DNA from: Leptospiraceae bacterium
Lineage (GTDB): Bacteria; Spirochaetota; Leptospiria; Turneriellales; Turneriellaceae
DNA length: 64,000 nucleotides
Assembly: GCA_025055765.1 (NCBI GenBank)
Contig: JANWWS010000028.1
Span: 57,216 to 121,215, forward strand
Direction: 5' to 3'
In this document: positions 29,062-43,429 of the stretch, in pieces
Numbering within the stretch: the first letter of the stretch is position 1
Layout: each line of letters starts with the position of its first letter
Program-made: the position numbers and the translations under genes
The notes under the pieces: generated by a model
Told to the model about the DNA's origin: nothing
Database searches by the model: none
What the model saw: the letters and a program-made list of their open reading frames with translations, nothing else

Positions 29062-32000
29062 TTAGGGGAGAGCCGTGTCTTCCTCGGCAAAAGGTGGGAT
29101 AAAGTCCATGATGACGGGATAAAGTTCCTTTTCTTCAAGTCCTTTTCTCTTAAAAGCAAGTTTTATATTAAGCTGGGCCGTTTCGTTTTCTTCTTCTATT
29201 CGCTTACTGTAGTTTAGGGAGCTATAGTAATGGAGCAAGGCTTCTTTTTCTAGATTTTTCATTTCATAAATGGCCCCCAGGTTGTTTTCGATCATGGAAA
29301 GGTAGGTAAAAATACGATTGTGCATGGTGTTAGCACGAGAGGGCTTTTTGATGCTCTCGGCTAGGCGGGCATACTTTTCTTTAAGAAATAAAAGATGACC
29401 CATGGCCATATTTAGGTAGGTGTCTCTGCTTTGAGGATCTAGGAGCGCGGCACGGTAGAGACCATGGGATTTTGCTAAATCAATACTGGGGAAGCGTTTT
29501 TGCATATCTGTGGGGATCTCTTCCCAATATGCGAGAGCTTTTGGGTAGTTCCCGCGAGCGTAGGCAGACCAACCGGAGTAGTACAAGAGCTCTGCCCGTT
29601 TAGCTTTATTAAAAACACCACGCTCTTTAGCCTCATTAAAGTAGACGTCAATCTGATCTAATTGGCTTAAAAAGGCCAGTCTGCCATATTCATCTTGGCC
29701 TTGGTAGCGATCAATTTCGGCCATGCGCTGGAAGCGCTCGGTTTGGCCTAAGCCTTGCACAAGAGCTAAGTACATTGCCTTACCTAAATTAAAAGGTATA
29801 ATGCCTAAATCAGCTTCAAGCAAAGTTTCATCTTCAAGTTCATCCCCAATAAGTTCTAGCTCGGCGGGCGAGATTTTTTCGTAGGCGAGTTTAAGAAGAT
29901 CCATGGCAGCAGCGTAGTCCTTAATTTCCATAAGCATTTCCGCATGTTCGTTGAGAGCCAGAAAATGGCGGGGATTGTACTTATAGGCGTATTCCATTTG
30001 TTTCATTGCCATACGCAGCTGCTTTCGGCTGTAGCGGTAAAATCGCCCTCTCTGGTAGTAGCCCTCGGCAAAGGTATCCCCCCTTTTTACATTGCCATAA
30101 ATGTCTTTTTCTTGCGTGGTAAACAGGGTGATGAGGAGGGCTTCTGCCCGATCTTTGAGATCCTCGCCTGTAACGGAATCGGTGGGGGAGAGATTGAACC
30201 GGATTCTCATGTCATCGCTTGGAGGTAAGTCAATATAAAAAGCGGCCAGGCGTGCGAGCAAAAACATAGGGAGTTTTTCTTCTAATTTTAGTTCATGTTT
30301 AATAATGCTGTGCTGTTGGATGACGAGCCGAGGGTCCTGGGTTGTTTGGTATAGCTTAAGCAAACATTGCATTACTCCTGTCTGTCCTGGGACGCTATAG
30401 GGATCCTCTCGGGTGATTTTCTCAAAATACTCTAGGGCGCGGTAATAGTCTTTCTGGTAGTAGTAGACATTGCCTATGCCGGAGATGGCATAGGTTAGGT
30501 ATTTTTCTTTTTCAAATAAAGGGGTTTCTACCTTAAAGGTGAGTAGTCTCTTAAAGTAATCAATAGCTAAAAGATTATTGTGGTAAGGGCTTTGGCGAAA
30601 CTTTTTAGCAGGATTGGAATGGAATTGACCTAAGGCTAAGAGTACTTGGGCGTTTTCTTTTTTGCGAATAAGTTGGCTGATAAGAAAGGCCCCATACTTT
30701 TTGAGCGTAAGCTTGAGTCCATTTAAGGATATAACTTCTTCGTTTTTGTTGGCATATTCAACAAAGGGTACTTTTTCCAAAATCCCCCAGATTTCCTCCA
30801 CCGAGTTGATTTCCCGATTAGCGAGTTTTTGTCGCTGCCTATTTTCTACGAGTTCAAGCTTACCAAATAATTTTTCAAAGGCCTGAGGATACTTGCCCGC
30901 CTTTTTATACGCATCGGCAAATTGGAGATAGGCATAATAATCATGAGGGTAATAGGTGAGAGCCTTTTCAAAAAGCTCTTCTGCTTTTGTGAAGCTCTCT
31001 GGCTTTTCTTTTTCGTATAAGATCAAGTTTCTGCCTTGAGAGATAAGTTTACGGTAAAGATAGGGCTTTAAGATACCAAACCATCCGCCAAAGGCAATTA
31101 GAATAATAAGTAGCGCAGCAATAGTGAGATTTCTCGAGAGCCTAAGCAGTTTTGCTTGGCGCTCCATGCCAGCTGCCGTATAGGCTGGCCGGCTTGCTAC
31201 GGTGCGCACTTTCTTGGGTTTTTCTTTTTCTTCAACTTTTATGCCGCTTTTTGCCTGTAGGAGCTCGGCTACTTCCCTAGCCTCTTTTTCTGCTAATATG
31301 GCATCGACAATTTCCCGGGTATCTTGTGGGGTGAGCTTATCCTCGAGAACTGCTTCTATAAAGGCTGCTCGTATACCAGAAGGGTAGGTTTTTAAGATGC
31401 GGCGAAGATCGCGTAGTTCTGTAGGAGAGAACGTAACAATCTCGCGCGCTTCTTGAGCGAGAGAGCTTAGTTCTTGCGAAAGATCTGTGAGAGGGCCCTG
31501 GCTTTGGGATAAAACGACCTCTGGCTGCAGCTCCTCAAGAGAAGGTGGCTCGGGATATTCGGGAATGGGTTGGCTAAAATCTTCGCTTGGGGGAGGGGAT
31601 GGAACTTCAAGAGAAAGTTCGGGTACAGAAAGGGTGGGCTCTTTTTCGAAAATATCCTCCGCAGGTAGGGAAAGCTCCTGAGAAACACCCTCGGCAAAGG
31701 GTGGAGCTTGTTCTTCCCCAAGAGAAAATTCGCTAGGCTCAAAAGCAACAGGCTCTGGGAGAGTCTCCGCCATAGATGGTATTTCAGGCTCTGGGGGAGC
31801 TGGCGGTTGCTCAATGCTGGGCACCTCGAGAGGTGGTGTTAAAGCTTCTTCTGAGATAGGTGGGGGCGGAGGCTCTGCTTCGCCTAGACCTAGTTCTGGG
31901 ATTTCTTCTTCAATAGGGGTAAATTTTCCTAGGTCAATACGGGGAGGTCTCGGCTCTTCTTCTATTATTTCCTGTGGAGTTTCGGGGAGTTCTTCACCCT

Positions 32001-32145
32001 CTTCCTGCGGTATGAACTCGCCTTCGGTTGGGGGGAGATCTACTTGCCCCGGTGCACGGTTAAAAAAGGAAGTTAGCTCGCGGATCTGGGCGAGTTCTTC
32101 CTCGGTGTACTCTACAGGTTCGGAAGGTTTTTTTTCTTGCTCCAT
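29062..32145 (-). CDS. large membrane protein: Pro/Glu-rich disordered N-terminus, one TM helix, long TPR-like C-terminal region
   Basis: 1027 aa. The first ~230 aa are Pro/Glu-rich low complexity. TM helix LTIAALLIILIAFGGWFGIL is followed by ~650 aa of TPR-like helical repeats. Confidence 0.6.
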   Translation of the reverse strand: MEQEKKPSEPVEYTEEELAQIRELTSFFNRAPGQVDLPPTEGEFIPQEEGEELPETPQEIIEEEPRPPRIDLGKFTPIEEEIPELGLGEAEPPPPPISEEALTPPLEVPSIEQPPAPPEPEIPSMAETLPEPVAFEPSEFSLGEEQAPPFAEGVSQELSLPAEDIFEKEPTLSVPELSLEVPSPPPSEDFSQPIPEYPEPPSLEELQPEVVLSQSQGPLTDLSQELSSLAQEAREIVTFSPTELRDLRRILKTYPSGIRAAFIEAVLEDKLTPQDTREIVDAILAEKEAREVAELLQAKSGIKVEEKEKPKKVRTVASRPAYTAAGMERQAKLLRLSRNLTIAALLIILIAFGGWFGILKPYLYRKLISQGRNLILYEKEKPESFTKAEELFEKALTYYPHDYYAYLQFADAYKKAGKYPQAFEKLFGKLELVENRQRQKLANREINSVEEIWGILEKVPFVEYANKNEEVISLNGLKLTLKKYGAFLISQLIRKKENAQVLLALGQFHSNPAKKFRQSPYHNNLLAIDYFKRLLTFKVETPLFEKEKYLTYAISGIGNVYYYQKDYYRALEYFEKITREDPYSVPGQTGVMQCLLKLYQTTQDPRLVIQQHSIIKHELKLEEKLPMFLLARLAAFYIDLPPSDDMRIRFNLSPTDSVTGEDLKDRAEALLITLFTTQEKDIYGNVKRGDTFAEGYYQRGRFYRYSRKQLRMAMKQMEYAYKYNPRHFLALNEHAEMLMEIKDYAAAMDLLKLAYEKISPAELELIGDELEDETLLEADLGIIPFNLGKAMYLALVQGLGQTERFQRMAEIDRYQGQDEYGRLAFLSQLDQIDVYFNEAKERGVFNKAKRAELLYYSGWSAYARGNYPKALAYWEEIPTDMQKRFPSIDLAKSHGLYRAALLDPQSRDTYLNMAMGHLLFLKEKYARLAESIKKPSRANTMHNRIFTYLSMIENNLGAIYEMKNLEKEALLHYYSSLNYSKRIEEENETAQLNIKLAFKRKGLEEKELYPVIMDFIPPFAEEDTALP

Positions 32146-32229: not shown

Positions 32230-33024
32230 ATGGTCTTTTTTCGGCTATGTCAAGTGTTTTTTTATCTCGCCTGGCCTTTCTATTTCTTATGGGCTGAGAA
32301 GTCCCCTGTCTACCGAGGAGGGGAGGAGAGCATAAGGACCTATAGCTGGCATGAGATCCACCATCTACGTCAAGCAGTGAAACCTCGGCCTATCTATTTA
32401 TTTGATGCAGGACTTTATGCAGAAAAGAACAAATATGCTTTGCGAGGCATTCTCTTTACGGTGGAAGCATTTGATGCCAGGCAGGTTTTCTTTGTAAGTG
32501 ATGCGCTGCATTTTCAAAAAGCACCCATGAGGCGGGGCAAGAGGGGGGTATGGTACTACTTGTATGTCCCACAGCCATTTGAGGAGGGAGAGATTGTGCG
32601 TAAAATCCGCTATAAATACCAAATTGATGGTTTTTTTACGCCCGACAAAACCCATGATGAGCGCGAAAGTGATGGGGGTGCTGGCACTGTCTCCGTTTAT
32701 TACCTTACCGAAGAAGACATTCCCTTTAAATCAGGTGTGATAGTGGGGAAAAAGAAAGGGCATGGAAGAGAAATTGTCTTTCGGCTTAAGGCTTTTGGGG
32801 CAAGGGAAGTTTCTCTTTTAGCTAGCTTTAACGGTTGGCATGGGGAGCTAGACCGCCTTGAGGAAGAAAGAGAGGGGATATTTAAATTGCGCAAACATCT
32901 CCCCTATGGGGAACATTATTATTTATATCGTGTGGATGGTAAGACCCAAATGGATCCTGAGGCAAAGGAAGTACGTTACCACCCTGTGTTTGGGCGGGTC
33001 AATGTGCTAAGGGTAAGCCCATAG
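32230..33024 (+). CDS. secreted protein with two CBM48/AMPK-beta-type glycogen-binding modules
   Basis: I start it at ATG 32230 (MVFFRLCQVFFYLAWPFYFLWA, signal-like); the track start 32137 would overlap the divergent gene. The C-terminal REIVFRLKAFGAREVSLLASFNGWHGELDRL...LPYGEHYYLYRVDGKTQMDP closely follows the CBM48 pattern. A weaker copy lies upstream. Confidence 0.55.
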   Translation: MVFFRLCQVFFYLAWPFYFLWAEKSPVYRGGEESIRTYSWHEIHHLRQAVKPRPIYLFDAGLYAEKNKYALRGILFTVEAFDARQVFFVSDALHFQKAPMRRGKRGVWYYLYVPQPFEEGEIVRKIRYKYQIDGFFTPDKTHDERESDGGAGTVSVYYLTEEDIPFKSGVIVGKKKGHGREIVFRLKAFGAREVSLLASFNGWHGELDRLEEEREGIFKLRKHLPYGEHYYLYRVDGKTQMDPEAKEVRYHPVFGRVNVLRVSP

Positions 33025-35280
33025 TTTTTGTTGGTGTTCACAGGAAAAAAAGGGTTCGCAGAGTTCACAGAAAGTGCGGTGCAAGATTTCTAAATACTTT
33101 TCTCTACTTACATGTACCTCTTCCTTGAGCGCTATTTTTTCTTCAGCAAGGTAAAGGGTCTTTTTCCCACGGTGGGAAACTAGGTAGCGGATCTTCTCGC
33201 CAGGTTTTACCGAGAAGCCTTCTTCGCGCAGCTGTTCTAGTACCTGACGGCTTTCACCCCATACGGAATACTGGGAAAGTTCTTTCCCTACGCTGCGGCG
33301 GAAAAGCAGTTTTTGCCAGCTCAGCTGCCCTGATTTTAACTCCTCCCTTGCCTCTTCGTATATGAGCCAAAAGTCTTTTTCTCTTTGTCGTACTTCAGTT
33401 ATGGTAGGGCATTGTTGCATAAGGAAAAGGATTTTTTCTTGAAATTCGGCAAAGAAGGCAGGAGTGTCTTTGCGGCGTAGAGCAATACCGCGATACTTCA
33501 TTTCGCCATTCATAAGTCGGCCAAAATAGCGGGTAGGTACCTTTAAGGCTGGGTTTTGTTTTGATGGGGGAAAGCAAAGCCAGCTATAATAGGCTTCTGC
33601 CGCAAGGGTTATTCCTGTTGCCTTTTCTACTTCTTGGCAGAGAAGTGGGGTGAGATTTTTTAAGGCTTCTTCGTCATTTAAAAATAAAAAGAGACAATCG
33701 GTCATGGCATGGAGAACCTGAAAACCCATTTGTTCGGCAATTTCTTTTGCTTTTAGTAACTTATCCCTGCCAAAGGCGGTTACAGCCTCGTGGGATTCTA
33801 ATTTACCAAACTTAGCATTGCGGTAACCTAAATAGCCAAAGGAGGTAACGAGCATCCATTTAAGGCTACTTTGCCTTTTGTCATAGATTTCTCGGTTTTG
33901 GCCAAGGGAGGCAGCTTTGGCCTTTAAGTAAGAGCGCCTTTCAAGTACCTTTTTTAAGGCACTGGCCACCACCCCCTCTCTTTGGCGGCATATGTGGTAA
34001 CTAGTGTAGGGTATCTTGGTCCCCCCTTGACGGCAACAGGAACAATTTACGGTTTCTGGAGAAATATTATGTTTTACCATAATGGTGGGGTACATTTGAG
34101 CAAAGTCTAATTGTACAGCGGGGGAAATAAGGGTTTGGTGAGGGGGCATGAAGGTGAGCCCTCCCTTGTCATGGCGTAGTAGCTCAAGAAGGGTTTTGGG
34201 GTTTTCTGCTTCACTTTTCTGCCAAGGAACAGCATAGTTCATCTTTAGGGCTGTTTCTATTTCAAGGCAGGTAAGGGCAAGTCCTGTAGAAGCCCTGGCC
34301 ATTCTCTGCACCGGCAGATGACTTAGACGGGAAAGTTCTATAATACCAACTAGGTCCGCTTCTTTATACAGGAAGCTGTTAGCAGAGTCAATATGCCATC
34401 TTCCATAAAGAGGCCAGGCAAGAGCTCTAAAGACAATATTGCCATAGCTATTGAAACTTTTCCCTCCTCGGCGATGGTGGCGCACGATCTTTAAAAGAGA
34501 GGGCCTATCGAAAAATAAATTTATACCACTTTTTTTTGCTAGGGCAAAAATCTCAGGTAAAAGAAAGAGATCACCCTGGGTAGTTAAAATAATGTCGGGA
34601 TCCCATTCTTGTAAAATAACATTGAGTTTTTTTAGAGCCGATGGACCTTCCCACAAAAGCCTTTCTTCACGAGATGGCATTTTTTCGGCTAAATTGTCTT
34701 TTTCTTGGCCAAAAGTGTCGAAGCTATAGACAAGGGGGTTTTTTGTACCAAGCGGTATGCGAGCTGCTTTTTCTTTTTTAAGCCGCAGTACTTTAAGAGG
34801 GGGGATTTCATATTCCAACTCATCTATGTTGTCATGGTTTTTAAGAGAAAAGAGGCGGCGGTTTTTTTCGTCAAAGATGGCGGTTACCCGGCAAAGGGGA
34901 AAGATGCCTTTTTGTAAGGCATAGGCAAAGGGAACCTCAAAATCAGCATGGTGGATTTCTGTTGTTCCATAGAAAGCAAAGAGTTTTTGCCGAATTTCTC
35001 TTAAGACATCAGAGCCGTTTAAGGTAAGCTTAAAAAAGGGCAAAAGGATGTTGCGGTAAAAATCTTTTTTATAGCAGATTTCTATTTTTTTAGCAAGAGC
35101 ATTTTTCTCAACTAACTGTTGCAAAAAAGCAGTGGTAGCTCTTTTCTTGCCTCTAACATAAATTTCATGGTAAAATTTGTCATAAAGATCAATTGTTTTA
35201 CCATTCTTTGTTTTAAGCCAAAGCTGTATGTCTTCACCAAAAGAATGTAGGTCAAAGACAAAGCCCTCAATCGCTGCCAT
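33007..35280 (-). CDS. family-B DNA polymerase (PolB), atypical
   Basis: Motif A LDFAQMYPTI (aa 391-400), motif B KWMLVTSFGYLGY (474-486), motif C region VLHAMTDCLF (522-531), then PTRYFG and RGIALRRKD in the thumb. See findings for the substituted exonuclease and motif C residues. Confidence 0.8.
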   Translation of the reverse strand: MAAIEGFVFDLHSFGEDIQLWLKTKNGKTIDLYDKFYHEIYVRGKKRATTAFLQQLVEKNALAKKIEICYKKDFYRNILLPFFKLTLNGSDVLREIRQKLFAFYGTTEIHHADFEVPFAYALQKGIFPLCRVTAIFDEKNRRLFSLKNHDNIDELEYEIPPLKVLRLKKEKAARIPLGTKNPLVYSFDTFGQEKDNLAEKMPSREERLLWEGPSALKKLNVILQEWDPDIILTTQGDLFLLPEIFALAKKSGINLFFDRPSLLKIVRHHRRGGKSFNSYGNIVFRALAWPLYGRWHIDSANSFLYKEADLVGIIELSRLSHLPVQRMARASTGLALTCLEIETALKMNYAVPWQKSEAENPKTLLELLRHDKGGLTFMPPHQTLISPAVQLDFAQMYPTIMVKHNISPETVNCSCCRQGGTKIPYTSYHICRQREGVVASALKKVLERRSYLKAKAASLGQNREIYDKRQSSLKWMLVTSFGYLGYRNAKFGKLESHEAVTAFGRDKLLKAKEIAEQMGFQVLHAMTDCLFLFLNDEEALKNLTPLLCQEVEKATGITLAAEAYYSWLCFPPSKQNPALKVPTRYFGRLMNGEMKYRGIALRRKDTPAFFAEFQEKILFLMQQCPTITEVRQREKDFWLIYEEAREELKSGQLSWQKLLFRRSVGKELSQYSVWGESRQVLEQLREEGFSVKPGEKIRYLVSHRGKKTLYLAEEKIALKEEVHVSREKYLEILHRTFCELCEPFFSCEHQQKLWAYP

Positions 35281-35548
35281 GGTTTTTTTGTAGTTTTTCT
35301 TGAAGTTTCGCTAGCTCAATTTCTAGCTTTCTTTGGCGTTGCTGGAGTTCTATAAGGGCAGAAAGCAGTACCGCATCCATGGGGTTGGGGAAAGCTGCTA
35401 AGGCCCCACTTTGGAGTTGCCTTAAGGCACTATTAAAGATTTCATCAAAGAGCAGCTGCTCTTCTTTTCTAAGTCCTCGACGGTAGAGGAAGAGACGTTC
35501 CTTTAGGTAGTCTACCTGAAGGCTAAAGGGTAAGATAGTACGGCCCAT
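35267..35548 (-). CDS. hypothetical helical protein (93 aa) coupled to polB
   Basis: Overlaps the polB start by 14 nt. C-terminal coiled-coil-like QQRQRKLEIELAKLQEKLQK. No recognisable family. Confidence 0.5.
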   Translation of the reverse strand: MGRTILPFSLQVDYLKERLFLYRRGLRKEEQLLFDEIFNSALRQLQSGALAAFPNPMDAVLLSALIELQQRQRKLEIELAKLQEKLQKNHGSD

Positions 35549-35556
35549 ACATCCCC

Positions 35557-36072
35557 CTAAAAAATACGTATTTTTTGTAAAGTATTTTTAGATGGGCCAA
35601 GCCGGTACGACTCTTTGGCTATCTTAAGTAGTTGGGGAAAATGTGAGCGAAAGACAGGGTGCTCATAGCTTTCTTTTTCTACCACAAGCAGGTGCTGTTT
35701 TTGAGCAAGGGAAGACCAGATTTGGTAAAGCTTTCCTAATAAAAACATGCTTTCCTTAAAACCTACATCGCCGTCAAAAAACTGTTTATGGGGAGCTAAA
35801 AAAACAGGGAGGATTTCGGGAGTTAGTTCTTGGGTTACCGTGAGAATCTGGTAGGGGGTAAAGAGTCTTTGGATGGTAATATGAGAGAGAATAACATCAG
35901 GGTTTAAAAAATGCCGCTGGCTTTCTTCCACTATGGCAAAAAGGTTTAGTCGGATAGCACAATCTAAAATATGTACCCTAAAGTTCTGCTTAACGAGAGA
36001 GATGAAAAGTTGTTGTACCCTGGCAAACACATACTCGCTTTTCCCATAAAAAAGTATTAGTCCCCGATGCAT
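35557..36072 (-). CDS. hypothetical protein, possible degenerate RecA/SulA/ImuA-like fold
   Basis: The track start is TTG at 36078; an ATG two codons later (36072) gives MHRGLILFYGKSEY.... The beta-strand/GKS/helix/RVHILD/...VFLAP...FFDGD arrangement suggests a RecA-superfamily core with an imperfect Walker A. By eye only. Confidence 0.35.
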   Translation of the reverse strand: MHRGLILFYGKSEYVFARVQQLFISLVKQNFRVHILDCAIRLNLFAIVEESQRHFLNPDVILSHITIQRLFTPYQILTVTQELTPEILPVFLAPHKQFFDGDVGFKESMFLLGKLYQIWSSLAQKQHLLVVEKESYEHPVFRSHFPQLLKIAKESYRLGPSKNTLQKIRIF

Positions 36073-36111
36073 AGGCAAAGGGGAGTATATACTTATTATT
36101 TGTAAAGTATT

Positions 36112-37350
36112 TTAGGGGAGGGGCTGCTCTCGTAAGGCTTCTTCTTTATCGGCTCCCTCGTAAAAGCGGTCGGAAAATTGGGACAGACGGTAACTTAGGG
36201 TTTCATAGTCCCCCACCACACCCCCTATAGCGGAATGGGGGGGAACTTTGGTTGTATCTGCCCGTGTGGGGTTTTGGGCAATTTGAGCAAGTTCCTCTGG
36301 GCTAAAATTGATATTGTTGCGGTAGCCCCGTAAGTGTTTTAGTACAAAAACACCTTCCCTTCCCTTTTCGTGAAAAATGCGGCCAAAAAAGAGAAGACTT
36401 ACTCTTCTTATGCCACTTTTTAGCTCCCCGTTGAAGTAGGCCCAGTGCATAGGTTCATCTGTTTCTTTATGGAAAAGATTGGCTTCAATAATATAGTGGC
36501 CTCCCTGATGTACCATAAGCTCTACATCAAGGTAAAGAGAGCCATCTTGTAGGTATTCATAGATGCGTCCTGTAAATTCCGCTGGTGCCCGTGGGGTTGA
36601 GAGAAAAACCTGCGATTCAACAAAAGTCTCCTCGCCCACTCTAAAGACGACTTCCAGAGTAAGCTCCCCCCAGTAAAGGCGTGTAGTCTCTGCTGGCTGC
36701 CATTCAAAAGTATAAATGAGATCCGCTGCGACATCGGGGGGATCCCCACGATCGTTAAAACGAGGTGGGTTCAATACCTGCTGCCCGGTTTTGACGTCAG
36801 AGAGTACGCGGGCTCTTTCTATTTTTATGGGCATTCTTTGTTTGGTCTTGCTCTCTAATACTTCGAGGTATAAAATAAACTTTTCTTTGCCTGTCACACT
36901 GTGCCGGGGACCCCAAAAATGAACTTCGTACTCCGCTGGGCCTAAGTCTTGGGGATTGAGCTGGCCCAGGCGCAGCTTTTCTTTTATCTTCGGTGAATAA
37001 AGCGGCAAGGGATTATTTTCAAGCCGTATTGGTTCCATGAGATCTTGCATATGCCGCTCTAAAGGCCTAGAATTAGGGGGGTAGCGGTAATAAAGTTCTA
37101 GGATGGCTCTCTCGGCCTGTGGGGTTGGGGCTGCTTCGCGTGCGATTTGCTGTAAGAGAGCTGTGTTGCTCAGAGTTGCCCAAGACTTTTCCCAAGGCAA
37201 GGCTGAGCTTCTTTTTTCGTATAGCTCTCGCTCAAGCTGTTGGATTTTGCGCTGGACCTCTTCTTCTCGTTGTTCGTTGTAGAGCAACCAAAATAAAGCT
37301 ACCGCAGTTAAGACAAACAAAAGAGCTGCCCACCGGTTCTTGTGAGGCAC
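36112..37350 (-). CDS. membrane-anchored hypothetical protein
   Basis: 412 aa. N-terminal TM anchor (WAALLFVLTAVALFWLL), then a coiled-coil and a beta-rich region. No recognisable family. Confidence 0.55.
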   Translation of the reverse strand: MPHKNRWAALLFVLTAVALFWLLYNEQREEEVQRKIQQLERELYEKRSSALPWEKSWATLSNTALLQQIAREAAPTPQAERAILELYYRYPPNSRPLERHMQDLMEPIRLENNPLPLYSPKIKEKLRLGQLNPQDLGPAEYEVHFWGPRHSVTGKEKFILYLEVLESKTKQRMPIKIERARVLSDVKTGQQVLNPPRFNDRGDPPDVAADLIYTFEWQPAETTRLYWGELTLEVVFRVGEETFVESQVFLSTPRAPAEFTGRIYEYLQDGSLYLDVELMVHQGGHYIIEANLFHKETDEPMHWAYFNGELKSGIRRVSLLFFGRIFHEKGREGVFVLKHLRGYRNNINFSPEELAQIAQNPTRADTTKVPPHSAIGGVVGDYETLSYRLSQFSDRFYEGADKEEALREQPLP

Positions 37351-37397: not shown

Positions 37398-38168
37398 TTA
37401 GAAAAGTAGGCGCGCCATGCGCTTGCGGTATTCGGCTACTTGTGGATGCTGGGGTCCCATGGCATTAAAAAGATCCACCAATTTTTGCCTGATCTTTTCC
37501 TTTTCTTCACTACTGGAAGCGTTCTCTAATTCTTGCAAGAGTTTTTGGGCTAAAACATCAGGATTTTCAGAGAAAAGCTTTTTAATTTCGTGAAATTCAC
37601 CAGCTTTTAGCTGTTCTAAGAGACGATGTTTGCGATCTGAATATGGACTACCATAAGCAGAGATGAGCTCAAGCGCCTCCCTAAATTCTTCTTCCTTTAA
37701 GGTGCTGCCAAAGGCTTCTAACCATTGCCAAATCACCTCATCTCTCTTGGTTGAAGAAAATGCTTTCTTGATCTCAGAAAAAGCCGCTTCTTTTTTTTTC
37801 TCTTCGATAAATTTACGGGCACTTTGCAAATGGGGGTTCGGTAGATGTTCGGCTAAAAAGGCTTTTACGGCACTTTCTGGCAAAGCACCGACAAACTCAC
37901 CAATAACTCGTCCCTGGTAGAAGAGCTTTACGGCCGGGATGCCCTGAATCCGGTATTCCATAGCCAGCCGGGGGCAAAGTTCTGTATTTACCTTCACCAG
38001 TTGAAAGAATCCCTGGAATTCCTGAGCCACTTTCTCCAAAATAGGACCTAGAATACGGCATGGGCCGCACCATTCGGCCCAAAAGTCAACGAGCACGGGT
38101 ATTTTGTAGCTAGCCTCTAAGACCTCTTGGTGGAAATCTTCTTCTTGGATATCCTTTACGGCAACCAT
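37398..38168 (-). CDS. thioredoxin-domain protein with TPR-like C-terminal domain (YbbN/CnoX-like)
   Basis: WAEWCGPCR active site in the N-terminal Trx fold, plus a ~150-aa helical C-terminal extension, as in YbbN-type co-chaperones. Confidence 0.75.
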
Positions 38169-38207
38169 GGCATCAATATAATATACCCTCCAAGGTATGT
38201 CTCTTTT

Positions 38208-38654
38208 TCATGATAGGAGTTCTCGTGCAATTTGAGAAGCAAGCTTACCATCAAATAGACCCTCGTGATTCTCTTTTAGGTATTTCATAGCATCCCCAAT
38301 GGTCTTTGCTCCTGAGTTTTTAATAATTTCTCTTAACTCCTCAGCGGTTAACTGGCGGGGGAGGAAAGACTCTAAAATGGCCTTTTCTCTTTCCATTTGT
38401 AGTTTTTGCTCGGCGGTGAGCTTTCCTTCTCGTGCGTACTCTAGATTTTCTTCAACTGACTTTAAAAACTGGCGCACTACCTTATAGACATCCTGGTCGC
38501 TAACAGCTCTATGGCCTTCATTAATGGCGATATTTTTTACCTGGGAGATGACGGTTGTTAAGAGATTAGCTTTTTGACTGTCTTTTTCTTTGCGCGCTTT
38601 CAAGGCCTCTTTTTGCAGTTGTTCCCAGACCACAAGGCAAAACACACTAGGCAC
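38208..38654 (-). CDS. GatB/YqeY-domain protein
   Basis: LKEALKARKEKD...LLTTVISQVKN...LTAEELREIIK...GKLASQIAREL match the YqeY family pattern. The true start may lie a few codons downstream. Confidence 0.8.
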   Translation of the reverse strand: MPSVFCLVVWEQLQKEALKARKEKDSQKANLLTTVISQVKNIAINEGHRAVSDQDVYKVVRQFLKSVEENLEYAREGKLTAEQKLQMEREKAILESFLPRQLTAEELREIIKNSGAKTIGDAMKYLKENHEGLFDGKLASQIARELLS

Positions 38655-38721
38655 TCAGCCCGTCAAGGAATTAGCCGAGCCAAGTCCTTATGGAAAAGTC
38701 CTAAAATCCTTGAGAAAAGAC

Positions 38722-38750
38722 TTGACCCCTCGGGCTATTTTGTTTAAACT
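38722..38750 (+). promoter_or_regulatory. candidate sigma-70-type promoter
   Basis: TTGACC (38722-38727), a 17-nt spacer, then TAAACT (38745-38750). The ATG at 38757 sits 7 nt after the -10 element, which is the geometry of a leaderless transcript. Confidence 0.4.
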
Positions 38751-38927
38751 TAAATTATGCACGTAGAACAAATTAGCCAGGCTCCTCCTCCCATGGAAAC
38801 CCAGGCCTTGCGTCAACAGCCGGAGCAAAAGCCCCCAGAGGCTGTGGATACGGGCGCGGCTGGCACGCAAAACCCGCCTCCACGAGAGCGGCTTGTGGAT
38901 GTCTATGCCTAATGCCGATACTATAAT

Positions 38928-39743
38928 ATGCCGGTTGACGCAGAGACGAAGAAAAAGTACAACGATCTCATAGCGGGCCAAAAAAAGGAGATTGCGGACT
39001 TAGAAAAAGAAATATCTCTCTTAAGACGGCAGATTAACGTAAATAAAAAACTAGAACCTTTTTATCGGTTAAAAATCATATCCCTTTATTTAAAGCAGGC
39101 TAATCTCTACCTCGAAATGAGCAATCTCTCGGAATCCATGATGAACATCAAAAATCACTCCTATTTAGATAACGGTGCACGAAAGCTTGTCTATAAAATT
39201 CTCTCTGAGGGGGAAAGCATTGTCACGGCAGAAATCGACGAACCCCTTGACCATAACCGGGAGCAATTAGATAAGTTAAAGCCCTTTAATCCACGCCAGA
39301 GACTTAATCTCTATAAACACATTAAGCGACTCATTGAGCGGCTCATCCAGGCATATGGTCCCAACACGAAGTGGCAGTGGTCTTTTCCCGAGTTATGGAG
39401 CAAATCAGCAGTGTTATTGAAAAACCTCATTGACTTTCGCGAGGTGCAGGCCATAAGGGATCCTCGTGAGGAGTTCTATTATGACCGGCAAGAAATGCTT
39501 GAATTAGTCAAAGAGGATCTCTTTCAAGCTTCAAACCATTATCGAGACAAGTTTGAACTTTCTACAAAGTCGCCCAATGATATATTGCACGCCATAAAGC
39601 TACTTGAGGCACTTAAACGAATTGCCAGTCTCATGGGCGATACAGAACTTGTGAAGCGCTGCAAGTCGGGAATAGAGGCCTATCGTTCCCGCATTGAAGC
39701 CGACGAAAAAGAAAAAGAGAAGAAAAAAGCAAAATCAAAGTAA
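38928..39743 (+). CDS. hypothetical helical protein
   Basis: 271 aa, coiled-coil-rich with a Lys-rich tail. No recognisable family. Confidence 0.55.
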   Translation: MPVDAETKKKYNDLIAGQKKEIADLEKEISLLRRQINVNKKLEPFYRLKIISLYLKQANLYLEMSNLSESMMNIKNHSYLDNGARKLVYKILSEGESIVTAEIDEPLDHNREQLDKLKPFNPRQRLNLYKHIKRLIERLIQAYGPNTKWQWSFPELWSKSAVLLKNLIDFREVQAIRDPREEFYYDRQEMLELVKEDLFQASNHYRDKFELSTKSPNDILHAIKLLEALKRIASLMGDTELVKRCKSGIEAYRSRIEADEKEKEKKKAKSK

Positions 39744-39783
39744 AAAAATTGGCTCTTTTGCTATAGCACAGTATATTAGCCCT

Positions 39784-40041
39784 GTGAAAGATTTGGTACT
39801 CTATTATTATGAGGAATGTCCCTATTGCCAGAGGGTTCTACGTTATCTTGAAGAGAAAAACATTAAGCTTAAAATGAAAAATACGCGACGTGATAATGCG
39901 GCACGAGAAGAGCTTTTGCGTCTTGGAGGCAAAACACAGGTGCCCTGTCTTATGATAGATGGCAAGCCGCTCTATGAATCCCTCGATATCATTGACTGGT
40001 TAGAAAAAAACATAGTTTATGTTCCGCGAGCTTTACGATAA
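39784..40041 (+). CDS. glutaredoxin-like protein (CPYC)
   Basis: The track ORF starts at 39694, inside the previous gene. I prefer the in-frame GTG at 39784 (VKDLVLYYYEECPYCQRV...). Has a CPYC active site and TQVPCLMIDGKPL. Confidence 0.7.
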   Translation: MKDLVLYYYEECPYCQRVLRYLEEKNIKLKMKNTRRDNAAREELLRLGGKTQVPCLMIDGKPLYESLDIIDWLEKNIVYVPRALR

Positions 40042-40294
40042 AGTTAAAGAAAAAATCAAATTAAAAATACCTCATGCGGAAGTATATATTCGGGACCCAC
40101 TGAAAGATGGGGCCCATCTCGAAGCTCTTGTCATTGCCCCCGAGTTTCAGGGACTTTCCCTGCTTGCCCAGCACCGGCTGGTAAAAGAAGCTCTAGGGGA
40201 TCTTTTGGGCAACGAGTTGCATGCCCTAGCCCTGAAGACCTTCACCCCGGAAAAATGGGAAAAAGAAAAAGAGTTCTATATATTAAAGGAGTAG
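40019..40294 (+). CDS. BolA-family protein
   Basis: GAHLEALVIAPEFQGLSLLAQHRLV...LHALALKTFTPEKW is a typical BolA core. Confidence 0.8.
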   Translation: MFRELYDKVKEKIKLKIPHAEVYIRDPLKDGAHLEALVIAPEFQGLSLLAQHRLVKEALGDLLGNELHALALKTFTPEKWEKEKEFYILKE

Positions 40295-40298
40295 TGTT

Positions 40299-40616
40299 AT
40301 GATGGACTTAACGGAGGTAAAAAAACAAATTGAGCAGGACATTCGGCAAAATCGAATTATCCTCTACATGAAAGGGGAGCGCCATATGCCTCGCTGTGGC
40401 TTTTCAGCACGTGTGGTTGAGATCCTAGAACAATACGGAGTGGATTTCGCCACAAGGGATGTACTAAAAAGCGAGGCACTACGCCAGGCAATTAAGGAAT
40501 ATTCCAACTGGCCCACCTTGCCGCAGCTTTATGTCAACGGTGAATTTATTGGCGGCTGCGATATTGTCACAGAACTCCATGAAAGCGGGGAGCTGAAAAA
40601 GATTTTAGGTGTTTAG
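40299..40616 (+). CDS. grxD: monothiol glutaredoxin (Grx4 family)
   Basis: CGFS active site (PRCGFSARVVEIL), WPTLPQLYVNGEFIGGCDI. Confidence 0.9.
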   Translation: MMDLTEVKKQIEQDIRQNRIILYMKGERHMPRCGFSARVVEILEQYGVDFATRDVLKSEALRQAIKEYSNWPTLPQLYVNGEFIGGCDIVTELHESGELKKILGV

Positions 40617-41855
40617 ATGTTTCTTGCGGAAAGACTGCGTTTACTTGATTTTGCCCGGGCCGAGGCTTGGCTTTTATCCCAGGAGCTGGAAACAAACCTC
40701 CCCTTCTATCTCTCGGTGGATATCCGAGATTCGGGAACCAAAGCTCTGCCTGTAGATGCCAATCTTTATCCCGCTGGTTTTAACAATCTGCATCCAGATG
40801 ATAGTTACTATGTTCGGGAGGCCATACGAGAAGCTGTCGAAAAAAGAGCTGCGGGCGCACAAAAAATCCTTATTTTAATGGAGGAACACACGCGTAACCT
40901 CTGGTATCTCGAAAACGTATGGACTTTAAAGCAATTCCTAGAAAGCGCTGGCTATGTTACAGAGGTAAGTACCCCTCGGGATTTGGAGGGGGTAGTATAC
41001 CAAAATGGGCTCGTCTATTTAAAAACAGCTACAGGAAATATACTTCCGGTATGGCATTTTTCCCAATGTCTTAAAAGAAAATACGACCTTGCTATTTTAA
41101 ATCATGATTTGTCTTATGGTGTCCCAGCGGAGCTTGAGCAGCTAGGTTGTCCTATTTGCCCAAGCCCTCTTTTGGGCTGGCACCGAAGACGTAAGTCTCA
41201 TTTTTTTGCCGAGTACGACCTAGTTGTGGAAGAATTGGCAAAGCACTTAAGGGTGGAGAGCTTCTTCCTAAGAGCTAAGTATCTGCGGATAGATAACATA
41301 GATATCTTTTCTGAGAAAGATCGCTATTTTTTGGCGCAAAAGGCAACCCAACTTCTCGATGAGCTAAAAAGGGATTACCAAGAGCATGATATTTCGGAAA
41401 ATCCCTACCTTGTATTAAAATCAGACCATGGTACTTATGGCATGGGTGTTGTGACCATAGAACAAGGTGAGGAACTACTTTCTCTAAATCGTCGTGAGAA
41501 AAATCGTCTCTCGCACGGCAAAGGTGGCAAAGCCACTGAAGGTTTCGTACTGCAGGAAGGGATAGCGACCTCTCTTGCCTACGAAGGGTATCCAGCGGAA
41601 ATGGTGGTATACCAAATAGACCGCCAGGTAGTGGGTCAGTTTTTGCGCTACAATACCGAAAAAGATGTACGCCACAATCTCAATAGCACAGGTATGCGCT
41701 TTTTTTCTTTTAGCAAGCATGGTTCTTTTTTACCGCAGGGGGTGTTGCGTTTTTATGCCATTCTTTCCCGCTCCGCGATGCTTGCAGCAGCGCGAGAAGC
41801 CATGCGGGCTCAGGTCCTAGCTTGCGGGGGATATGAAATTTCTTTTTCTCATTGA
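40617..41855 (+). CDS. gshA: glutamate--cysteine ligase, ATP-grasp-like GshA type (T. ferrooxidans-type family)
   Basis: N-terminal FYLSVDIRDSGTKALPVDANLYPAGFNNL resembles my recollection of the PF08886/TIGR02049 family. The ATP-grasp-like core is LVLKSDHGTYGMGV. The gene overlaps gshB by 23 nt. Confidence 0.6.
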   Translation: MFLAERLRLLDFARAEAWLLSQELETNLPFYLSVDIRDSGTKALPVDANLYPAGFNNLHPDDSYYVREAIREAVEKRAAGAQKILILMEEHTRNLWYLENVWTLKQFLESAGYVTEVSTPRDLEGVVYQNGLVYLKTATGNILPVWHFSQCLKRKYDLAILNHDLSYGVPAELEQLGCPICPSPLLGWHRRRKSHFFAEYDLVVEELAKHLRVESFFLRAKYLRIDNIDIFSEKDRYFLAQKATQLLDELKRDYQEHDISENPYLVLKSDHGTYGMGVVTIEQGEELLSLNRREKNRLSHGKGGKATEGFVLQEGIATSLAYEGYPAEMVVYQIDRQVVGQFLRYNTEKDVRHNLNSTGMRFFSFSKHGSFLPQGVLRFYAILSRSAMLAAAREAMRAQVLACGGYEISFSH

Positions 41856-42792
41856 TCCCCCCTCCTCCCTTCATCCGGAAAAAGATACCTCCCTTGCTCT
41901 TATGGCAGCAGCAAAAGAAAGGGGTGAAGTCTACTACACCACATGGGGAGGCTTTCACTTAGAAAATAGCGAGATATATTTTGCAGCCCAGAAAATCACA
42001 GTTAATCTTGATGGAAAAAAGGCAGTTTTTGTTTTAGGTGAAAAAGAGCTTTTATGCGCTCAAGAGCTCGATGTTTTCTTTATTCGCACGGATCCTCCTT
42101 TTGATTTAAACTATCTTGTGCATTGTTGGCTCTTAGACTACCTTCCTCCTCATGTAGCAGTAATTAACGAACCAAGAGCTCTAAGTCTTTTCAATGAAAA
42201 AATCTTTGCGCTGCGCTTTCGCTCGCTTATCCCCGATACGGTTATCACCAAAGACAAAAAGATCTTTCAAAATTTTTTGGATAAACACAAAACCATAGTG
42301 GCTAAGAGCATCCACGGCTTTGGTGGAAGTCAGGTTTTTCTCGTACATCACCGTGACCTAAACCGCCATGTAATTTTTGAAACCCTTGCTCAAAAGGGAG
42401 AGTATGTTCTATTACAAGAGTATATCCCACAAGCAAGTGAAGGAGATAAGCGTATTCTGATACTGGGTCAAAGAATCTTAGGCTGTATCTTGCGTGTACA
42501 TGCCGAAGGGGATCACCGCAATAATTTTGCAGCTGGGGGCAAGGCTTTTCCCTGTGAATTAACGAAACGAGATCAGGAAATCGTAGATCAGGTAAGTCAG
42601 GTTATTTTCCCCATGGGAATTCATTTTGCAGGTCTTGATATCCTAGGTAGCTACTTAACAGAAATTAATGTTACCTCACCAACCTGTCTTAGGGAAATGA
42701 ACTTACTTTACGGTGTAAGTCTCGAAAAGGAGGTGATAGACTATGCGATAAAGCTCTCGCAGGACAGGAAAAGGCAGTATGGCCCATTATAA
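41833..42792 (+). CDS. gshB: glutathione synthetase (prokaryotic ATP-grasp type)
   Basis: Collinear with E. coli GshB: MKF..IDP......KDTSLALM, RTDPPFD, and an ATP-grasp C-terminal half. Confidence 0.9.
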   Translation: MKFLFLIDPPSSLHPEKDTSLALMAAAKERGEVYYTTWGGFHLENSEIYFAAQKITVNLDGKKAVFVLGEKELLCAQELDVFFIRTDPPFDLNYLVHCWLLDYLPPHVAVINEPRALSLFNEKIFALRFRSLIPDTVITKDKKIFQNFLDKHKTIVAKSIHGFGGSQVFLVHHRDLNRHVIFETLAQKGEYVLLQEYIPQASEGDKRILILGQRILGCILRVHAEGDHRNNFAAGGKAFPCELTKRDQEIVDQVSQVIFPMGIHFAGLDILGSYLTEINVTSPTCLREMNLLYGVSLEKEVIDYAIKLSQDRKRQYGPL

Positions 42793-43429
42793 ATTAGTAA
42801 GTTTTAAACTCTGTCCCTTCGTGCAGCGATCTGTAATAGTCTTAAAAATGAAAAAAGTCCCTTTTGACGTTATTTATATAGATCTCGAAAATAAGCCTGA
42901 TTGGTTCTTAAAGCTTTCCCCAACAGGGAAGGTGCCTCTCTTGCAAGTCAATGGTGAGGTCCTTTTTGAGTCGGCCATCATTAATGAATATCTAGATGAG
43001 ACAAATCCCCCCTCTCTTCATCCAAGCGATCCCCTCGAGCGAGCAAAAAACAGAGCCTGGATTGAGTTTTTCTCTCAGTTGTTTTCCAAATTTTACCAAA
43101 TGTGCCATGCCAAGGAAAAAAGCGATTATGAGACATATCTGGGAGAGCTGCGACAAGCACTCTTGCGCATTCAAAAAGAACTTAAGCTACCTTACTTTAA
43201 TGGACCCAGTTTTTCGCTCGCCGATGCAGCTATTGCTCCTCTTTTTAGTCGTTTATCGCTTTTAGAGCACATACTTCCGGGTTTTTGGGACAGTCTAGAC
43301 GAGGTAAAGTCCTACAGCGCTAACCTCCTGAGTCTTCGGGAAGTAAAGGAAAGTGTTCTGCCCGATTTTGGCGAGGAATTTTGCCGCAATCTTCAAAATA
43401 AAGGAAGCTTCCTTGGCCTGTGCTTATGA
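42779..43429 (+). CDS. glutathione S-transferase (Cys-type N-terminal active site)
   Basis: CPFVQR in a thioredoxin-like N-domain, GKVPLL, ESAIINEYLDE, and a helical C-domain. Confidence 0.8.
   Translation: MAHYKLVSFKLCPFVQRSVIVLKMKKVPFDVIYIDLENKPDWFLKLSPTGKVPLLQVNGEVLFESAIINEYLDETNPPSLHPSDPLERAKNRAWIEFFSQLFSKFYQMCHAKEKSDYETYLGELRQALLRIQKELKLPYFNGPSFSLADAAIAPLFSRLSLLEHILPGFWDSLDEVKSYSANLLSLREVKESVLPDFGEEFCRNLQNKGSFLGLCL

Follow-up and report, generated by a model that had tools for sequence, protein, structure and literature searches.

The DNA examined is a window of 64,000 nucleotides (nt), the whole stretch that was analysed, from contig JANWWS010000028.1 of an uncultured Leptospiraceae bacterium, and on its minus strand three adjacent genes form a cassette that ends in a family-B DNA polymerase. 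The first gene of the cassette (35557-36078), which has a TTG start, encodes a protein of 173 amino acids (aa), referred to below as iRadA. It is followed by the gene encoding the 93-aa protein PPB2 (35267-35548) and by the gene encoding the 757-aa polymerase PolB2 (33007-35280). All three open reading frames (ORFs) are co-directional, the iRadA and PPB2 genes are separated by a gap of 8 nt, and the PPB2 gene overlaps the polB2 start by 14 nt, a layout that agrees in every coordinate with an earlier reading of this DNA made from its letters only (hereafter the sequence-only reading). We consider, with a probability of about 0.88, that these genes make up an iRadA-PPB2-PolB2 operon of the chromosome and represent, in bacterial form, the PolB2/Dpo2 'mutasome' known from archaea. 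All cassette features described below lie on the minus strand.

The polymerase was assigned to PolB2 by NCBIfam scores and pairwise comparison. The 757-aa protein matched Pfam DNA_pol_B with E=4.7e-31, which bears out the family-B identity proposed by the sequence-only reading together with its motifs A and B and the thumb motifs PTRYFG and RGIALRRKD, all of which are present. No match to Pfam DNA_pol_B_exo1 was obtained at E<=1. The top NCBIfam models were NF004416 (372 bits) and NF004418 (279 bits), whereas the models for Pol II scored at most 37 bits, and the same two models are also the top pair for Dpo2 of Saccharolobus solfataricus, for the PolB2 of L. ferriphilum and for one haloarchaeal PolB2. 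Pairwise comparison with S. solfataricus Dpo2 gave 38% identity over 221 aa of the palm and fingers (E=8e-44), in an alignment that pairs HAMTD with HGIID (in HGIIDSLV) and DKGG with VDKGG. With Leptospira proteins the identity is 41-45% over ~98% of the query. Full-length relatives of the polymerase number in the hundreds and nearly all of them belong to Leptospira or to other Leptospirales.

Residue alignments were made to solved archaeal PolB structures (including PDB 5mdn), and family columns were tabulated over 81 aligned relatives, to which the counts given for the polymerase refer unless a smaller alignment of 18 sequences is named. Motif A, LDFAQMYPTI (aa 391-400; 34081-34110), carries the catalytic Asp392 and the steric-gate Tyr397, and its residues D392, M396, Y397 and P398 are invariant. 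Motif B has the PolB2 form KWMLVTSFGYLGY (aa 474-486; 33823-33861), in which the Lys is retained and the canonical Asn is replaced by Val; the counterpart in Dpo2 is KWILVASFGYLGY, and K474, V478, F481, G482, Y483, L484 and G485 do not vary. Motif C, HAMTDCLF (33688-33711), aligns with YGDTDSLF, with Met526 in place of the first Asp of DxD and the metal-ligand Asp528 retained. Position 526 is occupied by Ile in 76 relatives, by Leu in three and by Met in two, and never by Asp, while D528 is found in 81/81. Moreover Y585 is invariant, and R584 is invariant or nearly so.

The exonuclease domain is decayed, and its catalytic carboxylates have been lost. The degenerate ExoI motif, VLRLKKEK, lies at aa 164-171 (34768-34791), where LRLKKEK aligns with FDIEV of PDB 5mdn; the sequence-only reading had recognised this substitution correctly and had placed it wrongly, at aa 163-170. 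The D-I-E positions of ExoI are L-K-K in the window, leaving no Asp or Glu at the catalytic sites, and the family columns are hydrophobic or variable there. In ExoII, TTQGDLFLLP aligns with TYNGDSFDLP and the catalytic Asp has become Leu. None of the columns of the exonuclease carboxylates holds a conserved acidic residue. The register of motif C and of ExoII, set by eye in the sequence-only reading with the first motif C Asp changed to Met and the second one kept, is confirmed by these structure-based alignments.

In the loop before motif A there is a PolB2-specific motif, D(K/R)GG, formed by D371-K372-G373-G374 (34159-34170). D371 (81/81) and G373 never vary, while either Lys (72/81) or Arg (9/81) stands at position 372. 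This motif is the 253-DK-254 of PMC11791011, a predicted contact for the N-terminal arm of PPB2. The stretch before it is also conserved, P352, W353, Q354, K355, S356, E359, K362, L367 and D371 being invariant in the 18-sequence alignment. Residues D258-R259 were considered as the published D(K/R) motif and rejected, since the alignment with Dpo2 puts the motif at D371-K372.

Judged from these alignments, the loss of the exonuclease and of the first DxD Asp are features of the whole family and are not peculiar to the window gene. On the same grounds, the polymerase retains all the residues for nucleotidyl transfer (Asp392, Tyr397, Lys474 and Asp528), and its residue pattern fits an active polymerase minus proofreading, not a decaying pseudogene.

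Two groups of cysteines are present in the polymerase. A four-Cys cluster, C413-x-C415-C416-x14-C431 (33988-34044), lies between motifs A and B, as the sequence-only reading had noticed with the last spacer miscounted as x15, and all four cysteines are invariant in the 81 sequences. Of these, C416 and C431 are matched by the Cys pair seen in archaeal PolB structures, and haloarchaeal PolB2 has C-x-C-H...C at this place. The cluster is probably a metal site or a disulfide region. The second group, C-x2-C-x5-C-x-H (aa 738-756; 33013-33069), is C-terminal and stands directly before the degenerate QQKLW tail. It was rejected as a family feature: among the 18 aligned sequences only the 64%-identical relative (P0002, from locus L081) has it, and the position of C738 is taken by Arg, Lys, Glu, Gln or Leu in the 81.

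The iRadA protein of the window has 173 aa and is N-terminally shorter than most of its relatives, which have 200-245 aa; with this length there is no space for an N-terminal domain. A profile of 37 iRadA members matched the ATPase domain of Pyrococcus furiosus RadA (E=2e-5) through ...IDCAIRF...VQRAFTPYQ, and five members of the family matched Pfam Rad51 individually. The AlphaFold model of the window protein, computed from an input of only three sequences, has an alternating beta-alpha fold with a predicted local distance difference test score (pLDDT) of 73 and a predicted template modelling score (pTM) of 0.69. When this model was compared with the PDB by Foldseek, the top 50 matches listed were all RadA, Rad51, Dmc1 or Rad51-paralogue complexes, with E values of ~1e-5 and TMq of ~0.65. 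The most conserved stretch of the family is RLFTPYQ (aa 71-77; 35848-35868), equivalent to ...V(A)RAFN... of RadA. It aligns with 'YVARAFNS' of RadA and 'IRRAFKA' of S. islandicus iRadA, and no variation was seen at R71, F73 and Y76 in the 37 sequences, with T74, P75 and Q77 conserved in at least 90%.

The sequence-only reading had described the 173-aa product as a RecA-superfamily fold with an imperfect Walker A, and both parts of this description hold: the profile and the model indicate a Rad51/RadA fold, and GLILFYGKSEY does not match [AG]x4GK[ST]. The Lys and Thr of Walker A are unconserved, and among the 37 sequences only G12 is invariant at this site. Because Walker A is lost and the profile and fold matches are to RadA, the 173-aa protein is, as far as sequence and model can indicate, an inactive Rad51/RadA paralogue devoid of an N-terminal domain and of an ATPase site. 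It is related to archaeal RadA/Rad51 and not to bacterial ImuA or RecA.

PPB2 corresponds to arCOG07300, and proteins identical or related to it are annotated with PF26485/DUF8156. It begins with the MGRT 'arm' motif (35537-35548), whose residues M1, G2, R3 and T4 are the same in all 30 sequences compared and which is described as a hallmark contacting PolB2, iRadA and DNA (PMC11791011). The AlphaFold model of this protein, made from the single sequence, contains three helices (residues 8-23, 28-47 and 56-90) with a pLDDT of 86, and a fold search of the PDB with this model gave no match. A comparison of the PPB2 profile with S. islandicus PPB2 by hhalign gave E=4.8e-4 over 67 columns, running end to end from MGRT, with a low probability of 32%. 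Scanning 1.84 billion representative proteins with the 93-aa query returned 212 clusters, most of them aligned from residue 1. Pfam scans of PPB2 members yielded coiled-coil noise only, and no Y-family match was found for the 93-aa protein. A metagenomic representative of 4395 aa (P0145) contains six stretches that match PPB2 residues 32-87 (E=4e-11); a PPB2-like helical module may be repeated there, or the matches may be an artefact of repeats or coiled coils.

The linkage of the three genes was followed in relatives. A scan of one genome per species gave 443 polymerase-matching stretches, from which 80 loci were fetched and the ORFs beside polB searched; a word-indexed protein search with the two small proteins had returned only 3 matches and 1 match. 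Both small genes were found directly upstream of polB, with order and strand unchanged, in 70 loci, and two more were added by profile iteration, giving 72/80. In the remaining eight either the gene of iRadA alone or the pair of small genes escaped detection, and six of these loci are cut by a contig end. The other two, from a Spirochaetia metagenome-assembled genome (L049) and a Turneriellaceae one (L054), have several kb upstream of PolB2 with no iRadA or PPB2 gene there, and their partners may be encoded elsewhere or lost. The intergenic gaps in relatives are typically of -8 to +10 nt and stop and start codons often overlap, tight gaps that suggest translational coupling. In one metagenomic representative of 265 aa (P0134) iRadA and PPB2 are fused, with PPB2 at residues 178-260 and an internal ...VIMGRTIMPYS... 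kept; fused operons of this type are described in PMC11791011. The three genes are linked across Leptospirales and in a few other bacteria, and are occasionally fused.

The sequence-only reading had named findings that would contradict it, and at each of them the data point the other way: the exonuclease carboxylates and the DTD are absent from the alignment, homologous polB loci keep the small ORFs and the model of the 173-aa protein has a RadA fold. It was mistaken in believing the three-gene arrangement to be undescribed. Makarova et al. 2014 (PMC4104785) predicted an operon of an 'inactivated' PolB2, arCOG07300 (a helical protein of ~90 aa) and an inactivated RadA, in archaea and several bacteria and sometimes with lexA; the arrangement was reported in 2013-2014. 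Timinskas et al. 2025 (PMC11791011) renamed the partners PPB2 and iRadA, gave the bacterial order as solely iRadA-PPB2-PolB2, took the PPB2 'MGRT' arm and the PolB2 D(K/R) motif as hallmarks and modelled the products as a PolB2-iRadA-(PPB2)3 pentamer. In supplementary file 1 of that paper many Leptospira operons are listed as '1a (iRadA-PPB2-PolB2)' with HAITD/HTMTD motifs (ITD/MTD); its model of a Leptospira trio has a ranking score of ~0.88, and the iRadA of L. biflexa is the bacterial reference. The operon is believed to have reached bacteria as a whole, by one transfer from archaea (PMC11791011). The cassette family is therefore already described, including in Leptospira, and is not new.

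What is reported for the archaeal enzyme indicates a possible function. Dpo2 is a robust polymerase without exonuclease which is poor at insertion opposite lesions and efficient at extension of mismatched or lesion-paired termini (PMC8764526), and it is required for damage-induced mutagenesis (PMC7390963). By analogy, and from the published models, PolB2 and iRadA would each contribute one copy to an assembly with a trimer of PPB2; PolB2 would bind iRadA via a motif that resembles the one of Rad51 oligomerisation and immediately precedes D(K/R)GG, and one PPB2 arm would be inserted near the active site and DNA. In damage tolerance such a complex would extend primer ends that are mismatched or paired with a lesion, would do so without proofreading and would thereby give rise to damage-induced mutations; where a relative has a clamp-binding tail, its complex probably acts together with the beta clamp. 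The guess of the sequence-only reading, a proofreading-deficient PolB translesion or mutagenic module with its own subunits, is supported by this homology to the PolB2 system.

A possible signal of clamp binding lies in the C-terminal tails. A Q-hydrophobic-x-hydrophobic-aromatic motif, for example QMKLW or QLQLW, is present in 40 of the 81 PolB2 tails against 6.9 expected. Five iRadA tails have a clamp motif, and the PolB2 and iRadA motifs occur together in one locus only, an either/or pattern which has been published (PMC11791011) and which is reproduced in the fetched loci. The use of the beta clamp by the PolB2 family is therefore plausible, as judged from these tails. The polymerase of the window ends in ...CEHQQKLWAYP and a stop (33007-33039), a degenerate counterpart of the motif of relatives.

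The region upstream of iRadA also carries a recurrent element. In most loci CTTTACA precedes the ATG of iRadA by 23-38 nt (e.g. L013, 5100-5140, and L017, 4934-4972), and in Leptospira loci it is followed after ~17 nt by TATATA or TATAGT and then by the ATG ~7-10 nt on, a spacing which suggests that the Leptospira transcript may be leaderless or nearly so. The spacer after CTTTACA is often CTATACATATATATAG, which agrees in 7/8 positions with the LexA1 box of L. interrogans, CTnnACnnnnGTnnAG, derived from chromatin immunoprecipitation (PMC4756842). LexA1-like boxes of at least 7/8 were found upstream of iRadA in 19/69 loci against 2.4 expected, an excess inflated by shared ancestry and A+T-rich promoters. 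The old leptospiral SOS box, TTTGN5CAAA, occurs in the upstream regions of 5/72 relatives against 1.3 expected. Moreover lexA is placed beside the cassette in nine of the 80 fetched loci and an SRAP gene in six, in agreement with the literature. In the window, the 33-nt gap upstream of iRadA contains CTTTACAAATAATAAG (36092-36107), a weak copy of the family element that may be read as a -35-like TTTACA or as a LexA1-box half-site. A sigma-70 promoter scan found no minus-strand promoter in this gap, and in the nearest relative (L081) the CTTTACA element is absent upstream of iRadA. The function of the window element is, from its sequence, uncertain.

Several points weigh against identifying the window cassette with the PolB2 mutasome, or against extending the proposed role to it. 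To our knowledge, no bacterial PolB2 complex has been purified or genetically tested, and for both the stoichiometry and the role in translesion synthesis one extrapolates from experiments in Sulfolobus and from AlphaFold models. The NF004416 and NF004418 scores of the window polymerase fall under the curated cut-offs of NCBI. The profile of bacterial iRadA matches Sulfolobus iRadA weakly (E=0.078 over 14 columns), as is expected from the fast evolution and divergence reported for iRadA-type proteins (PMC4104785). The tails of the window proteins, ...QQKLWAYP with Gln at position 2 in PolB2 and ...QKIRIF in iRadA, resemble the clamp pattern and fail it in its strict form, and since both are degenerate the use of the clamp by the window copy is uncertain. 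As regards regulation, the best match of the window element to the LexA1 box is 6/8 with no properly spaced -10, TTTGN5CAAA occurs five times in the window against 3.5 expected with none near the cassette, and no lexA or SRAP gene adjoins the cassette. The sequence-only reading had proposed a search for a LexA-type operator upstream, and no convincing SOS box was found at the window copy. Control by damage through LexA is plausible for the family from its upstream sequences and is not evident in this copy.

The oddities specific to this copy, namely the short iRadA, the C-terminal Cys3-His cluster, the degenerate clamp motif and the lack of a visible LexA link, are minor and are judged by conservation only. 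One could suppose that the window and its 64%-identical relative represent a derived, differently wired mutasome, with a truncated iRadA, an extra Cys3-His cluster, a degenerate clamp tail and no LexA control, perhaps expressed by read-through from the upstream housekeeping genes. We regard this as unlikely; if it were true, the extender would be expressed constitutively or by another signal and would be recruited by something besides the beta clamp.

Two other explanations concern what the polymerase does. According to the view of PolB2 held in 2008-2014, it would be a catalytically dead pseudo-polymerase with a structural or regulatory role, for instance at stalled forks or in replication initiation. 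The first DxD Asp, the motif B Asn and all the exonuclease carboxylates are indeed substituted, and it was from changes of this kind that inactivation was inferred in PMC4104785. However, Dpo2 of S. islandicus and of S. solfataricus bears the same substitutions (IID) and is nonetheless a robust polymerase (PMC8764526), and the six residues D392, Y397, K474, D528, R584 and Y585 vary little or not at all among the 81 relatives, as selection on catalysis would give, so that a dead enzyme seems highly improbable. An active complex could alternatively have its main role outside translesion synthesis, in recombination-associated or gap-filling synthesis, the Rad51-like subunit targeting it to recombination intermediates. 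That one subunit is a Rad51/RadA homologue and that the window copy has no clear SOS control would suit such a role, and alternatives in replication and repair were raised in PMC4104785. Nevertheless iRadA lacks both the ATPase site and the N-terminal DNA-binding and oligomerisation domain, Sulfolobus genetics links Dpo2 to damage-induced mutagenesis (PMC7390963), and lexA and SRAP genes co-localise with the cassette in relatives; we consider this role very unlikely as the principal one.

The polymerase might instead belong to an anti-phage defence system, to a mobile element or to a virus, and stand outside core DNA metabolism. The operon is thought to have been acquired horizontally by bacteria from archaea, and a PADLOC model labelled homing endonuclease does match the polymerase (E=5.5e-20, profile positions 1390-1602 of 1671). 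This match, however, covers residues 480-703, which are the polymerase's own palm and thumb, and the two small proteins match no defence family; as PADLOC gave only this palm/thumb match to a homing-endonuclease model, the defence-system reading was rejected. In addition, the G+C content of the cassette is that of its flanks, the neighbours are housekeeping genes (thioredoxin, YqeY, CBM48, Sua5 and glutathione synthesis), synteny with the nearest relative (L081) extends to the downstream CBM48 gene and the cassette is found throughout Leptospirales chromosomes. A mobile or defensive origin of this kind is extremely improbable, and a chromosomal PolB2 mutasome operon remains the interpretation that we prefer.

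Upstream of the cassette and on the same strand are placed a 412-aa ORF, the gene of a thioredoxin-TPR protein and yqeY, and downstream, on the other strand, the gene of the CBM48 protein. The product of the 412-aa ORF (36112-37350, minus strand), an ORF which ends 33 nt before iRadA begins, is hydrophobic in an N-terminal segment and matches no family of Pfam or NCBIfam. It has one homologue in the 80 related loci (in L034), located away from the cassette, and L081 has a different, uncharacterised gene, of 224 aa, at this place. A thiol-redox cluster extends over 37398-43429 on one side of the cassette and includes the genes encoding the thioredoxin-TPR fusion, YqeY, a glutaredoxin/GST-N protein, a small monothiol-glutaredoxin-like ORF, GshA (glutamate-cysteine ligase), GshB (glutathione synthetase) and a GST-like ORF. 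A further minus-strand gene, at 29062-32145, encodes 1027 aa; the N-terminal third of its product is long, rich in Pro and Glu and of low complexity, and the protein also has numerous TPR repeats and one predicted membrane segment.

Automated annotation conceals the PolB2 mutasome, for the polymerase is tagged only as 'DNA polymerase', PPB2 is known to Pfam as a DUF, and no family is assigned to iRadA; the filing of PPB2 as DUF8156 explains in part why annotation does not reveal the system. Leptospirales carry the cassette almost universally, including species of the pathogenic Leptospira clades, and for this reason it is a reasonable candidate for the main damage-induced mutagenesis pathway of Leptospirales. 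This concerns the described family and nothing new in the window.

When compared with known systems, the window cassette agrees with PolB2 mutasome group 1a, whose prototype is Sulfolobus/Saccharolobus Dpo2 with arCOG07300 and an inactive RadA. It has the same three protein families in the bacterial gene order, a hydrophobic residue in place of the first DxD Asp, a lost exonuclease site, D(K/R)GG, a PPB2 with the MGRT arm and three helices, and an iRadA without ATPase residues or N-terminal domain. From the published Leptospira members of group 1a it differs in sequence (41-45% identity in PolB2), in the length of iRadA (173 aa as against ~200-245 aa), in the lineage-specific C-x2-C-x5-C-x-H, in the degenerate clamp tail and in having no adjacent lexA or SRAP gene.

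Among bacterial polymerases, E. coli Pol II likewise has a family-B fold and is non-replicative and of the extender type, whereas it consists of one subunit, encoded by a stand-alone gene, in which the 3'-5' exonuclease is active and the DTD motif intact. The ImuA-ImuB-DnaE2 system is also a multi-gene bacterial mutasome, with a degenerate RecA-superfamily subunit and a polymerase without proofreading, but its catalytic subunit is of the C family, its adaptor ImuB is of the Y family and its ImuA is of the bacterial RecA/SulA type. As the PolB2 operon is probably an archaeal transfer and has a RadA-type subunit, the resemblance is an analogy and not a relationship, no component being homologous beyond the distant P-loop fold. 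In E. coli Pol V (UmuD'2C-RecA-ATP), as pointed out in PMC11791011, the polymerase also binds a RecA/Rad51-family protein by a filament-like oligomerisation motif, a small oligomeric subunit puts its N-terminal arm near the active site and the sliding clamp is used; there, however, the catalytic subunit is of the Y family, RecA is the active cellular recombinase, not a dedicated inactive paralogue, and the small subunit, which is dimeric, folds differently. Pol zeta (Rev3-Rev7(2)-Pol31-Pol32), which is eukaryotic and has unrelated accessory subunits, is similar in being a heteropentameric, damage-responsive family-B extender with an inactivated exonuclease.

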